Assembly: GCA_042565725.1 (NCBI GenBank)
Contig: JBHORK010000004.1
Location: 2,750 to 66,749, forward strand
Length of the DNA stretch: 64,000 nt
Direction: 5' to 3'
Source of the DNA: Verrucomicrobiota bacterium
Lineage (GTDB): Bacteria > Verrucomicrobiota > Kiritimatiellia > UBA8416 > JBHORK01
Shown: piece after piece, positions 7,591 through 61,460 of the stretch
Layout: each line of letters starts with the position of its first letter
Numbering within the stretch: position 1 is the stretch's first letter
Program-made: the position numbers and the translations under genes
Notes under the pieces: model-generated
Told to the model about the DNA's origin: nothing
Databases searched by the model: none
The model's input: only the letters and a program-made list of their open reading frames with translations

Positions 7591-7633
7591 AATTGAATAT
7601 CCAATATCCAACAAGGAATATCCAACATCCAAG
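7591..7633 (+). repeat. Heptamer-periodic ATATCCA array with CCAACAAGGAA core
   Basis: AATTGAATATCCAATATCCAACAAGGAATATCCAACATCCAAGG. The 25-mer 7601-7625 is identical to 8569-8593. Confidence 0.85.
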
Positions 7634-25332: not shown

Positions 25333-25399
25333 TGAAATCCGAAATTCTAAATTCAAAATTGGGCATTAACATCTGTGTGTTATTCTTTCCAATTTCCAG
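25333..25399. repeat. Paired heptamer arrays (AAATCCG/AAATTCT and TTTCCAA/TTTCCAG)
   Basis: GAAATCCGAAATTCTAAATTC ... TTTCCAATTTCCAGTTTCCAATTTCCAGTTTC between mreC and mreD. Confidence 0.7.
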
Positions 25400-25435
25400 T
25401 TTCCAATTTCCAGTTTCAGGCCGGGAGGCCTAAAT

Positions 25436-30550: not shown

Positions 30551-30853
30551 GAGAATGATAAATTATAAATTATGAATGATGAATCAGAAAAGAAATCCTA
30601 AGCACCCGCCTTCGCGCAAGGCTACGGTGAGGCAGGCTAAACTCTAAATTCTAAACAATCCGCCGTCGCCAAGGCTATGGCGGGACAAGATTCCAATGAT
30701 TTAAATTCAAATGTTCAAAACGCAGAAAGTGCTCTGGAATGCACATTTGCAAGTATTGGCGCCGAATGTCTTGATCATTTGAACATTAGAATTTAGAATT
30801 TGTTTAGGATTTTCCGCCACAGGCGGATCAGCCGTGGTTGAAGATATTAGAAT
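30551..30853. repeat. Composite intergenic repeat region (heptamer arrays plus REP-like hairpins)
   Basis: GATAAAT/GATGAAT units, CTAAATT units, hairpins at 30606-30636 and 30660-30689, inverted TTAGAAT units, and TTCCGCCACAGGCGGATC (also at ~53401). Confidence 0.8.
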
Positions 30854-33292: not shown

Positions 33293-34228
33293 ATGGAGTA
33301 TCTTGTAACAGGCGGGGCGGGTTTTATTGGTTCTAATATTGTTCACACTCTTGTTAAAGACGGAAAATCTGTGAGAGTATTAGATAATCTTTATACCGGC
33401 AAACTGAATAATATTAGTGAAATCCTGACTGATATTGATTTTATGGAAGGCGATATCAGGGATGAGGCTTCTGTACGTAAGGCTGTTGATGGAGTTAAAA
33501 ACGTTTTGCATCTGGCAGCTTTGCCATCGGTAATAAGATCAGTCGAAGATCCTTTGAAATCCAACGATATCAATATGCTTGGAACTTTGAGAATGTTGAT
33601 TGCCAGTCGTGACGCAGGTGTTGACAGATTTGTTTTTTCTTCTTCATCTTCGGTTTACGGGGACACACCTACTTTGCCTAAGCATGAGGATATGGCTCCT
33701 ACTCCGCTATCTCCGTATGCTGTTCAAAAGTTGTCAGGAGAATTCTATTGCAGGATGTTTTATAAACTCTACGGTCTAAAAACTTTTTCGCTGAGGTATT
33801 TTAATATATTCGGGCCGAGACAGGATCCGTCTTCTCAGTATTCCGGAGTAATATCTTTGTTTGTTGAAGCTCTTAAAAATAATACACAACCGACCATTTA
33901 TGGTGACGGCGGGCAGACTCGAGATTTCACGTTTGTTGATGATGTTGTTCGGGCGAATTTATGTTGCTGTGACGCGTCGGAGAACGCGGCAGGGGATGTG
34001 TACAATGTTGCTCGCGGCGGAAGAGTTTCTATCAATGATCTTTTCTTTGCATTGGCCCGGATTATGAAGAAGGATATGAAGCCTGTTTACAGTGATCCGC
34101 GCGCAGGTGATGTGCGTGATTCGAAGGGTGATACCGGCAGGGCTCAAAAGGCGTTAAACTGGAAATCGGAAGTTGAGTTTGAGGAAGGCCTGAAGAGAAC
34201 GGTAGCGTACATTTTAAATGATGAATGA
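33293..34228 (+). CDS. NAD-dependent NDP-sugar epimerase/dehydratase (extended SDR)
   Basis: LVTGGAGFIGS, SSSSVYG, SPYAVQK (YxxxK), RYFNIFGPRQD and QTRDFTFV. Confidence 0.95.
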   Translation: MEYLVTGGAGFIGSNIVHTLVKDGKSVRVLDNLYTGKLNNISEILTDIDFMEGDIRDEASVRKAVDGVKNVLHLAALPSVIRSVEDPLKSNDINMLGTLRMLIASRDAGVDRFVFSSSSSVYGDTPTLPKHEDMAPTPLSPYAVQKLSGEFYCRMFYKLYGLKTFSLRYFNIFGPRQDPSSQYSGVISLFVEALKNNTQPTIYGDGGQTRDFTFVDDVVRANLCCCDASENAAGDVYNVARGGRVSINDLFFALARIMKKDMKPVYSDPRAGDVRDSKGDTGRAQKALNWKSEVEFEEGLKRTVAYILNDE

Positions 34229-34278
34229 TAAGTGATAAATGATGAATTAGTAAGGGTTGATAAATCCAGGTTTTATAA

Positions 34279-36651
34279 ATGACGCAGAAAGAAGCAAAGC
34301 GTTCCGCAATCCGCAATCCGCAATCCGCAATCCGCAATTCATATGATCCTTTACTATATGGCGGCAATCAGGACACAGGCCTTGTTGCTGTTGAACATGT
34401 CGAGAAGAAGACATCTGATCAGATCGTTTTGTTCTTTAGAGAGAACGATAAAATAATAGAGAAACAAGAGTCTTTCAATCCGTTTATTGCAGTTAATGCG
34501 GATGTTATTGCTGATTGCCCTCTTGAATTTAAATCAAAAAAGCTTAAGGGCCGCGGTCGGCTGAATCTCCTTGCCCTGTTTTCGTCTTGGAAAGACTTTC
34601 TTAAAGCAAAATCCTGGCTAACCAAAGAAACCGGATTTGCGCCCAGTGCGCCCGGTGCCCCGTTTTTATGTGTTAATGATCCGGTTCAGCAATACCTTAT
34701 GTTATCAGGCAGGACTCTCTTTCTGGGTATGGAGCTCGAGGATCTCAGGCGCATGCAGGTGGATATCGAATGTTTTACAACAGAGGGATATGAGTTCTGT
34801 AATGCTGAACGTGAAGGTGACAAAATAATAGCAATTGCGTTTGGTGATCAAACGGGATGGACAAAGGTTTTATCAGGAGGTGAACTGAGCGAAAAGGAAT
34901 TGCTGGAACAATTCGTAGCCATTATACAGGAACGCGACCCGGATGTTATAGAAGGCCATAATGTTTTCAACTTTGATCTTCGATATATAGCGAAACGTGC
35001 TAAGCGGCATGGCGTAAAACTGGCTGTAGGTAGGAATAGCGGTATGCCCGTATGGCGTCCCAGCAGGTTCAACGTTGGTGAGCGTACGATTTCGTATCAA
35101 CGCTGCAATATTTTCGGCAGGCATATAATTGATACGCTCTTTCTTACTCAGGCATATGATATTACACATCGTTCACTTAATGGGTATGGATTAAAAGAAG
35201 TTGCGATTCATTTCGGGCTGGCTCCTCGGAATCGTACTTATATTGAAGGTTCGAAAATCAGTAAAGAATTCGATCGAAATCCTGAAAAGGTAATGAAATA
35301 CGTTTGTGACGATATCAAAGAGACGCGTAAATTAAGTGAATTGCTCTCTCAGAGCGCTTTTATACAAACGCAAATGCTGCCGTATTCGTACCAGAATGCC
35401 TGTATCAGGGGGAACGCCACAAAGATCGACGCATTGATGATCAGGGAATATCTCAGGAAAGAACATTCCCTGCCTTTGCCTGATATAGCGCGTGAGTTTG
35501 CCGGCGGTTATACTGATATGTTTATCGAAGGGATAATTGAGAATGTTCATCATTGTGATGTTCGTTCTCTTTACCCGTCGCTGATGCTTACTCAGAAACT
35601 TGTTCCGAAAAGTGACAAGCTGGGTGTTTTTGAAGCGCTGTTAAGTAATCTTCGGGAATTTCGTATTAATGCCAAAGAAAGAATGCAGAAAAGTTCAACG
35701 GAATCGAAAAAAACATACTTTGATGCGCTTCAGGCAACTTTCAAAGTTCTGATTAACTCGTTTTACGGGTATCTTGGTTTCTCGCAGGCGCGCTTCAGTG
35801 ATTTTAAAGCCGCAGAGCAAGTCACAGCAGAAGGTCGGTCACTTCTTCAGTCCATGATAAAATGGATGCGGAAACATGGTGCAGAACCAATAGAAATTGA
35901 TACGGACGGGATCTACTTTGTTCCGCCGGGACAAAGTGACGCGGCGAAACGGCGAAGCGGGGACGCGGCGAAAGGGAATAAGAGTGAAGCGGGGAAACGG
36001 GTCCCGCAGTGGCGGGATCTCCGCTCCGCTCCGAGAAGCGGCGAGATAGAGAAGTTCAGGGAGGAATTTGCGAAGTTTCTGCCGGAGGGGATTGAAATAG
36101 AATTTGATGGTGAATATGAATCCATGTACAGCTATAAAATGAAGAATTATGCTCTGCTGACATATGATGGTGAAGTGATTATAAAGGGCGCGGCGTTAAA
36201 ATCGAGGGGATTGGAACCGTTTCAAAGGTCTTTCTTAAAGGAAGTAATTAAGTTGAAACTCGAAGGAAACGAAGAAAAGATTCCGCGATTGAAAAGTGAA
36301 TATGAAAAGGCCATAAGGAACAGGGAGTGGTCAATAGAAAAACTTGCAAAAACTGAGAATCTGCAGGACGCTCCATCAACCTACGCGGCCAAGCGCGCAC
36401 AGGGTAAGAGTTCGAGACGTGCTGTATATGAGCTGGCCTTGCGGTCCGGGCGTGATTATAAGGCAGGTGATCAGATATCCTATTATGTTACGGGTGAGAA
36501 AAAGAGTGTGGCTGTACATGAGAATTCGAAACTTGTTTCGGATTGGAACCCGAAGAAAAGAGATGAGAATGTTGTTTACTACTTAGCCAAGTTGGATGCA
36601 TTATATAAGAAATTTGGCGGGGAGGATATGCAGGGGAGATTGAATATATGA
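34279..36651 (+). CDS. polB: Family B DNA polymerase (Pol II-like) with a 3'-5' exonuclease domain
   Basis: Exo I DIECF, Exo II GHNVFNFD, Exo III YVCDD; polymerase motifs DVRSLYPS, KVLINSFYGY and EIDTDG. Confidence 0.93.
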   Translation: MTQKEAKRSAIRNPQSAIRNSYDPLLYGGNQDTGLVAVEHVEKKTSDQIVLFFRENDKIIEKQESFNPFIAVNADVIADCPLEFKSKKLKGRGRLNLLALFSSWKDFLKAKSWLTKETGFAPSAPGAPFLCVNDPVQQYLMLSGRTLFLGMELEDLRRMQVDIECFTTEGYEFCNAEREGDKIIAIAFGDQTGWTKVLSGGELSEKELLEQFVAIIQERDPDVIEGHNVFNFDLRYIAKRAKRHGVKLAVGRNSGMPVWRPSRFNVGERTISYQRCNIFGRHIIDTLFLTQAYDITHRSLNGYGLKEVAIHFGLAPRNRTYIEGSKISKEFDRNPEKVMKYVCDDIKETRKLSELLSQSAFIQTQMLPYSYQNACIRGNATKIDALMIREYLRKEHSLPLPDIAREFAGGYTDMFIEGIIENVHHCDVRSLYPSLMLTQKLVPKSDKLGVFEALLSNLREFRINAKERMQKSSTESKKTYFDALQATFKVLINSFYGYLGFSQARFSDFKAAEQVTAEGRSLLQSMIKWMRKHGAEPIEIDTDGIYFVPPGQSDAAKRRSGDAAKGNKSEAGKRVPQWRDLRSAPRSGEIEKFREEFAKFLPEGIEIEFDGEYESMYSYKMKNYALLTYDGEVIIKGAALKSRGLEPFQRSFLKEVIKLKLEGNEEKIPRLKSEYEKAIRNREWSIEKLAKTENLQDAPSTYAAKRAQGKSSRRAVYELALRSGRDYKAGDQISYYVTGEKKSVAVHENSKLVSDWNPKKRDENVVYYLAKLDALYKKFGGEDMQGRLNI
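34303..34337 (+). repeat. Perfect (TCCGCAA)5 tandem repeat within the polB 5' end
   Basis: Five exact 7-nt units, read in frame as SAIRNPQSAIRN. Confidence 0.95.
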
Positions 36652-61246: not shown

Positions 61247-61460
61247 ACATCCTCCTTGTTGTTGTTGCGTACTTCGCGAAACATATCTTTCCCTTCGATG
61301 TTCGAAGTTCAATGTTGGATGTTACCTCTTCCCTAAAACCCAACACTTTCTCCCCGCACAACCTGCAATTTTGCTCTTTTCCCTCCACCCCTCTTTGTGT
61401 AGTCTGTTCACGTTAATTACGTGGGATTGTACCCTTTTTATTATGGAGGACTCAATAAAA

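Follow-up and report, generated by a model that had tools for sequence, protein, structure and literature searches.

A perfect heptanucleotide array in the leader of a Kiritimatiellae polB gene is likely a tolerated member of a genome-wide microsatellite family rather than an evolved contingency switch

The gene for a family-B DNA polymerase (polB) in a sediment bacterium of the Kiritimatiellae carries, soon after its start codon, a perfect tandem repeat of a unit of seven nucleotides (nt), which an earlier interpretation of the letters alone (the sequence-only reading) had proposed to act as a phase-variable switch. We analyzed this tract within a 64-kb window, that is, the whole stretch of DNA under study (C148:2750-66749), taken from a 2.96-Mb metagenome-assembled genome (MAG; G000) of 203 contigs and 73% completeness. 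The tract is likely a lineage-specific heptanucleotide microsatellite belonging to a genome-wide family, carried as a tolerated in-frame 36-nt insertion in the polB leader, and not an evolved contingency switch. This account is carried by direct observation of the anatomy of the tract, the consequences of unit number for the reading frame, the genome-wide family, the presence of arrays in essential genes and the absence of the array from relatives.

The start region of polB comprises the following features.

34279..36651, + strand: polB, an intact family-B DNA polymerase gene encoding 790 residues (open reading frame list, translation, Pfam, NCBIfam and PDB)
34279..34281, + strand: ATG start of polB, used at 2, 5 or 8 units; in the assembled state, the sole canonical in-frame start 5' of the conserved block
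34303..34338, + strand: perfect array, (TCCGCAA)x5 plus one base, 36 nt or 12 codons (polB codons 9-20), translated as SAIRNPQSAIRN
34342..34398, + strand: first conserved block, YDPLLYGGNQDTGLVAVEH, codons 22-40, common to all homologues; the start must lie 5' of it
34429..34431, + strand: TTG at codon 51, the next in-frame ATG/GTG/TTG after ATG 34279; it would yield 740 residues lacking the conserved block

Inspection of this region bears out the description given by the sequence-only reading. The eight codons from ATG 34279 (ATG ACG CAG AAA GAA GCA AAG CGT, encoding MTQKEAKR) are followed by five exact TCCGCAA units at 34303-34337, and one more matching base extends the perfect period-7 run to 36 nt. 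Tandem Repeats Finder (TRF) returns 34303-34338 as the top-scoring repeat in the window, with a period of 7, 5.1 copies and 100% matches, where base composition predicts 3e-13 such runs per 64-kb window. The array holds no stop codon in any frame, contains two ATC codons and is the longest among the 19 TCCGCAA arrays of the genome. The flanks of the polB copy are unique in the assembly and the locus is single copy; a strain-variant contig of the locus was sought in the MAG assembly and none was found, with only the array itself matching elsewhere.

To place the tract relative to the start of translation, the N-termini of 60 homologues were aligned. Conservation begins at (Y/H)DPLLFG..N...GLVAVEH, corresponding to polB codon 22, which puts the tract inside the coding sequence. 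Matches in 36 of the 41 genomes of the same order start at query residues 16-26, and residue 5 of Pfu PolB pairs with polB residue 38. Given that conservation covers residues 22-50 and that no canonical in-frame start occurs from the tract up to codon 51, retention of the conserved block requires translation of the tract. The same observations reject a true start downstream of the tract, the outcome under which the sequence-only reading would have failed; its statements that TTG at codon 51 is the next in-frame start and that the nearby ATG (34343-34345) is out of frame, by an offset of 64 nt, both hold. Leaders of the homologues are about 6-12 residues long, with a few longer, and their sequence is not conserved. 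When the 36-nt run is taken out, the polB leader reads MTQKEAKR-SYDPLL, a length usual among relatives. The tract looks like a clean 12-codon insertion in this leader, which is itself presumably dispensable.

The identity of the gene as DNA polymerase B was confirmed by Pfam, by PDB comparison and by its motifs. Pfam matches to DNA_pol_B (PF00136, 1.2e-25) and DNA_pol_B_exo1 (PF03104, 1.9e-18) both lie above their cut-offs; the NCBIfam models for DNA polymerase II (Pol II) and PolB match as well, but under their equivalog cut-offs. Archaeal PolB structures are closest in the PDB (5e-41), with E. coli Pol II farther away (1e-16). The translation contains the exonuclease motifs Exo I (VDIECF), Exo II (NVFNFDLRY) and Exo III (YVCDD) together with polymerase motifs A (DVRSLYPS), B (KVLINSFYG) and C (IDTDG). 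Because DnaE is encoded in the same genome, PolB is probably an accessory enzyme, dispensable without death of the cell. Across the order polB is a core gene, present in 36 of 41 genomes and in 20 of the 21 high-quality ones.

To learn how unit number affects the reading frame, the locus was rebuilt in silico with 0-10 units. With 2, 5 or 8 units, ATG 34279 is in frame and the full-length protein is encoded. With 0, 3, 6 or 9 units, a peptide of 10-31 residues results and the body of polB can be started only from the TTG at codon 51, giving 740 residues; the gain of a single unit (six in total) therefore leaves a 24-residue peptide and, at best, the 740-residue truncated enzyme. With 1, 4 or 7 units, the ATG yields a peptide of 49-63 residues and a second codon comes into frame for the full length, which would produce 795 residues at four units.

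34257..34259, + strand: upstream TTG, which joins the polB frame at 1, 4 or 7 units and lies directly after TAA-GGG

Because TAA-GGG abuts this TTG, no Shine-Dalgarno sequence stands at the proper spacing from it, and whether the codon is used is uncertain. Its in-frame position at 1, 4 or 7 units nevertheless leaves, out of two shifted frames, a single one that is cleanly OFF. The sequence-only reading was right that any change in unit number shifts the frame unless it is a multiple of three, whereas the plain ON/OFF outcome it drew does not follow, as TTG 34257 would potentially rescue the frame at four or seven units. The polB locus is at best three-state.

We then considered the tract against the rest of the genome. 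A census of perfect tandem repeats with at least 3 copies was taken over the whole MAG, with the expectation derived from base composition.

Period 5: 11 arrays seen, 2.3 expected
Period 6: 6 arrays seen, 0.15 expected
Period 7: 93 arrays seen, 0.0095 expected
Period 8: 9 arrays seen, 0.0006 expected

Twelve of the period-7 arrays belong to the TCCGCAA class, where 1172 classes are possible, and the unit is found at 19 loci on 10 contigs when shorter copies are included. A common flank was sought around the TCCGCAA arrays; the flanks proved unrelated except between paralogues, and a mobile-element flank common to them was rejected. With respect to placement, 59 of the 93 arrays fall within long open reading frames (ORFs), 29 between ORFs and 5 at ORF edges. 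On a crude longest-ORF map (89% coding), this corresponds to 22 arrays per Mb in ORFs versus 91-107 per Mb outside, a density 4-5 times greater that amounts to a genome-wide preference for boundaries.

A small number of unit classes recur and are mutually related, among them AATCCGC (12 arrays), AACCATC (7), AATGATG (6), ACTCCTG (6) and AAATCCG (6), and one unit may occur in unrelated genes, as CAGGAGT does in murC-murB, prc and a glycosyltransferase gene. At two contig ends (C116:1-55 and C179:11214-11268), the terminal 55 nt exactly are an ATCATTC array, the same in both. The assembly thus seems to break wherever an array exceeds the assembler k-mer, and the longest arrays are probably under-counted. 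Other period-7 arrays in the window lie at 7596-7632, 25386-25417, 30553-30584 and 61294-61323 (AATATCC, TTTCCAA, GAATGAT and TTCGATG); these four have 4-5 copies with 70-88% matches and are mainly in intergenic spacers.

Host genes of the translated arrays were identified by Pfam. N-terminal fragments of 70 residues gave no Pfam match, and the full-length proteins were then used. The identified hosts include the following.

C193:2482-2514: valS (valyl-tRNA synthetase), array between the catalytic and anticodon-binding domains
C117:25697-25731: murC-murB fusion, array in the interdomain linker
C141:1941-1975: fabD, ATG fused to (GAAATCC)x4.7, MKSEIRNPKSEI...
C181:48598-48629: nadB (L-aspartate oxidase), the same TCCGCAA unit as in polB, read QSAIRNPQSAI
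C137:52436-52467: nadC (quinolinate phosphoribosyltransferase), translated array
C163:4212-4243: prc (tail-specific protease), translated array
PMT_2 glycosyltransferase gene (Pfam): translated array

The arrays in housekeeping genes are perfect, contain 4-5 units, remain in frame and occupy domain-boundary loops or N-termini. When aligned to T. thermophilus ValRS, the valS array shows up as an insertion in a loop. polB has its nearest counterpart in fabD, with the same ATG-plus-array layout; there the next in-frame start is codon 29, behind the GQG motif, and residue 16 is where the FabD fold sets in. In bacteria, ValS, MurC/MurB and FabD are established as essential proteins. The equal arrays in valS, murC-murB and fabD mean that, in this genome, a contingency gene cannot be recognized by a perfect in-frame array of 4-5 units, and with nadB, nadC and prc they show that the repeat is not confined to conditionally useful genes. 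Arrays also stand at the N-terminus of an adenylate-kinase-like P-loop protein and of a giant secreted protein.

Genomes with genuine repeat switches have many of their switch genes out of frame. Genes currently in an OFF state were sought by adding or removing one or two units in silico at each of the 93 arrays and asking whether a change fuses two open frames. No array-associated frameshifted gene or pseudogene was detected among them by this screen, which is insensitive to arrays at extreme 5' gene ends. The single flag, C179:6454, was ruled out as an OFF gene; it is intergenic, a pair of opposed arrays that separates two genes for 2-oxoacid:ferredoxin oxidoreductase subunits. At this site (C179:6370-6475), TCGAACA/TCCAACA units stand opposite GATGTTC/GATGTTT units with the potential to form a long hairpin.

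Evidence on array turnover comes from at least 20 tandem paralogues of about 1100 residues with PQQ_2 beta-propellers, which carry a heptamer array at one shared linker (YG...WPMYRHD), for example ...YG[K NPQSAIRNPQS D]WPMYRHD.

C11:24823-54851, C66:4985-46920, C130:2362-19014 and others: loci of the PQQ_2 paralogues

The DNA flanking these linkers is ~62% identical (77-83% for the closest pair), and each array is near-perfect internally. Units include AAATCCG, CAATCCG, ACCATCA and TCAAATC, and some arrays are mosaics of two unit variants. The pair ranked second in flank similarity (75-80%) carries unrelated units, ACCATCA-type in one and AAATCCG/CAATCCG in the other. Units are thus replaced or homogenized faster than flanks diverge, which indicates that units are gained and lost over evolutionary time. 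Linker length is ~13 residues throughout, and length steps of 7 residues were not seen in this family. This constancy argues that selection holds the length and purges out-of-frame intermediates.

Related genomes, in which the sequence-only reading had expected unit number to be informative, carry no array at polB in any of 29 order-level loci. The closest polB homologue is 65% identical, the protein cluster has one member, and the names that homologues carry assign the organism to Kiritimatiellae. A genome search returned no relative of the same genus or family among species-representative genomes. In metagenome contigs, neither a DNA pattern anchored in the flanks and open to 2-6 units nor a codon-degenerate pattern of the first conserved 20 residues gave a match (0 for each). 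One relative, G021 (L004), holds TTGAACC x4 (194-221) and GATGACG x3.3 (1217-1239) within 1.3 kb upstream of polB, outside the gene. The other 28 loci, spanning about 126 kb, are devoid of perfect heptamer arrays, and heptamer richness is therefore patchy in the order.

Two further repeat-derived features accompany the polB tract.

34215..34247, + strand: degenerate heptamer array, TAAATGA-like (4.7 copies with 80% matches by TRF), in the 50-nt spacer 5' of polB
35932..36045, + strand: second in-frame, repeat-derived insertion in polB, about 37 residues (residues about 552-589), right behind the DTD motif

The upstream gene (33293-34228) encodes an NAD-dependent epimerase according to the ORF list and Pfam (Epimerase), and its last four codons and TGA stop (34226-34228) come from the degenerate array. 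The polB start accordingly sits between two arrays, one lying over the upstream stop (34215-34247) and the other beginning 24 nt past the ATG. A promoter and terminator scan of 33900-34500 returned no match on the + strand. The insertion at 35932-36045 holds an imperfect 8-nt-period repeat at 35942-35973 (TRF) and is lineage-specific, in that matches in 30 relatives break into query residues 19-551 and 589-782.

Taken as a tolerated microsatellite, the tract would behave as follows. Translation would start at ATG 34279, and the ribosome would read the array as SAIRNPQSAIRN before reaching the conserved YDPLL...GLVAVEH block. Tolerance of the array would follow from a net length divisible by three, from the lack of a stop in every frame and from a position beyond the folded domains. 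A one-unit slip would frameshift polB, and the loss of one unit would bring TTG 34257 into frame. This risk would constitute a mutational liability common to dozens of genes, essential ones included, and any ON/OFF heterogeneity would be a by-product. Slippage at polB probably does happen, yet at five units, where its rate should be low, it probably acts as a liability that selection clears. OFF alleles could linger solely on account of the probable dispensability of PolB.

Several points weigh against this account. The polB array is perfect and the longest of its unit family, as would fit recent or ongoing slippage. The turnover of units in the PQQ_2 arrays implies that frameshifted intermediates must occur. 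Unlike valS or fabD, polB is survivable when OFF, and OFF subpopulations may exist. The screen for OFF genes is insensitive to arrays at the extreme 5' ends of genes, and the crudeness of the longest-ORF map must be counted here as well.

A rival idea is that of a selected slipped-strand switch, in which PolB would be ON in the ATG frame, possibly LOW in the TTG frame, or OFF, and subpopulations would differ in damage tolerance or mutation rate. We consider such a switch quite unlikely. The structural preconditions noted in the sequence-only reading are present: the 7-nt step lies in 5' coding sequence ahead of conserved residues, no start follows until codon 51, and PolB is probably dispensable given DnaE. 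Array units do turn over in this genome, the two starts in three frames resemble multi-level phase-variable genes, the layout is that of neuO in E. coli K1 (PMC13001214) and H. pylori mutY is a precedent for a repeat-switched repair gene (PMC8875331). What finds no support in this setting is a dedicated switch. The tract belongs to a 93-array family whose equally long, perfect members in valS, murC-murB and fabD would be lethal if they switched, such that a position within coding sequence is no sign of selection. An OFF-state gene was found at none of the 93 arrays, the upstream TTG may rescue one of the shifted frames, polB is core in the order (20 of 21 high-quality genomes) and relatives have no array at polB. 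The tract also has only 5 units, whereas neuO alleles span 3-53 units with a mode of 20 and, even at 21 repeats, the parental length is kept by 93% of cells, leaving ~7% off-length (PMC13001214). The bolder version, that the tract slips appreciably, that the population mixes PolB-ON, PolB-low and PolB-OFF cells and that polB is the first microsatellite-switched DNA polymerase, appears just as doubtful. On a wider version still, the arrays would be an actively homogenized system that spreads between loci and writes peptides with a 7-residue period, with polB as the sole host to exploit viable frameshifts.

Alternatively, the arrays could be DNA or RNA signals at gene boundaries, such as single-strand-binding or Csp-like sites or elements of translation initiation or mRNA stability, with the polB copy simply read through. 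Arrays are 4-5 times denser outside ORFs, they bracket the polB start, favored unit families recur at unlinked loci, and their internal perfection despite ~62% flank identity suggests constraint or homogenization at the nucleotide level. For the TAACTGA arrays that precede Beggiatoaceae starts a translational role was proposed, and CspB binds heptamer repeats (PMC4679880). We nonetheless regard this explanation as unlikely, since the units are many and occur in both orientations, mid-gene linker arrays (valS, murC-murB and the PQQ_2 family) fit start-site signals poorly, the + strand around the tract has no promoter or terminator match and a binding protein or structure for the arrays was not identified. 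It would be more surprising still if the tract were untranslated (with a downstream or non-canonical start and the array as a 5' untranslated element), or if the gene were a pseudogene or the tract an assembly artefact. Arrays near gene starts are mostly intergenic, ATG 34279 is preceded by a weak AGG alone at -12 to -10, and the array contains two ATC codons. This explanation is highly improbable in view of the conservation of residues 22-50 in all homologues with no in-frame ATG/GTG/TTG from the tract to codon 51, the intact catalytic motifs and open frame of 790 codons, the recurrence of the ATG-plus-array layout in fabD, the single-copy locus and a tract length of 36 nt, far below that of a sequencing read.

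If polB does switch, the logic of contingency loci would extend beyond the surface structures of host-adapted pathogens to a genome-maintenance polymerase of an environmental bacterium, and a free-living sediment organism would gain heritable, reversible bet-hedging over its damage tolerance or mutation rate. The tolerated microsatellite that we favor carries a caution instead. Because valS, fabD and murC-murB carry such repeats, a perfect non-triplet repeat in 5' coding sequence is, on its own, no evidence of phase variation in a heptamer-rich genome. The more interesting lead is the existence of translated, length-held and sequence-homogenized heptamer arrays within essential genes, which raises the question of how a 7-nt array could come into a reading frame, and last there, with no lethal frameshift stage on the way.

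We know of no repeat-switched DNA polymerase, and to this extent the statement in the sequence-only reading that no case had been described stands. It does not extend to repair genes, where homopolymer slippage in H. pylori mutY leads to a mutator state and mobile elements control mutS or mutL by means of an excisable sequence that switches genome maintenance (PMC8875331). The shared idea is a hypermutable or excisable sequence that switches a genome-maintenance gene and alters the mutation rate in a subpopulation. Switching and the mutator phenotype were measured for mutY, mutS and mutL, whereas polB is known from sequence alone, encodes a polymerase rather than a glycosylase or mismatch-repair protein and carries a 5-unit heptamer. 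As an enzyme, PolB resembles other family-B polymerases (E. coli Pol II and Thermococcales PolB) in its exonuclease and polymerase domains and in retaining all catalytic motifs; it differs from its relatives by the 21-residue leader with its repeat and by the insertion of about 37 residues after DTD, both of which the relatives lack.

As a repeat, the tract fits within the heptanucleotide simple sequence repeats (SSRs) of prokaryotes. Two papers summarize the work of Mrazek, Guo and Shah (2007), in which heptanucleotides outnumbered every other class of long SSRs with units of 5-11 nt and a polymerase-related slippage bias was proposed (PMC4679880, PMC4692102). Heptamer-rich examples include the short tandemly repeated repetitive (STRR) sequences of cyanobacteria and two worked cases, GGGNATC in Xanthomonas and Nostoc and TAACTGA in Beggiatoaceae, where the repeats are mostly intergenic and near starts or stops (PMC4679880, PMC4692102). 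The present genome is alike in its period-7 excess, its few favored units at unlinked loci, its typical copy numbers of 3-6, its intergenic enrichment and the overlap of arrays with starts and stops. In contrast, the known SSRs are reported to be under-represented in coding sequence, whereas 59 of the 93 perfect arrays here lie in ORFs and are translated, and one dominant word is replaced by many unit families. We found no comparable heptamer report for Kiritimatiellae.

Among phase-variable heptamers, those of H. influenzae comprise 13-38 units in the hmw promoters, which they modulate, with ORFs interrupted at 8-14 units (PMC2651432), and its AACAACC tract has 1-13 units. The 5.1 units of the polB tract stand at the low end when compared with neuO, hmw and AACAACC. 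The nearest likeness in design is neuO, an O-acetyltransferase gene of the CUS-3 prophage in E. coli K1, in which an AAGACTC repeat in the 5' coding sequence permits the ON state only at multiples of three and 65.6% of complete K1 genomes are OFF (PMC13001214). Both genes carry a perfect tandem 7-nt unit in 5' coding sequence, encode a peptide with a 7-residue period and produce the full-length protein in one of three count classes. neuO differs in that its repeat is polymorphic and commonly about 20 units long, with +/-1 alleles measurable in culture, as compared to the five units of polB. neuO, moreover, serves surface modification and is carried horizontally, whereas polB belongs to the core, housekeeping-type genes of its order, in a genome where such arrays sit in essential genes too.

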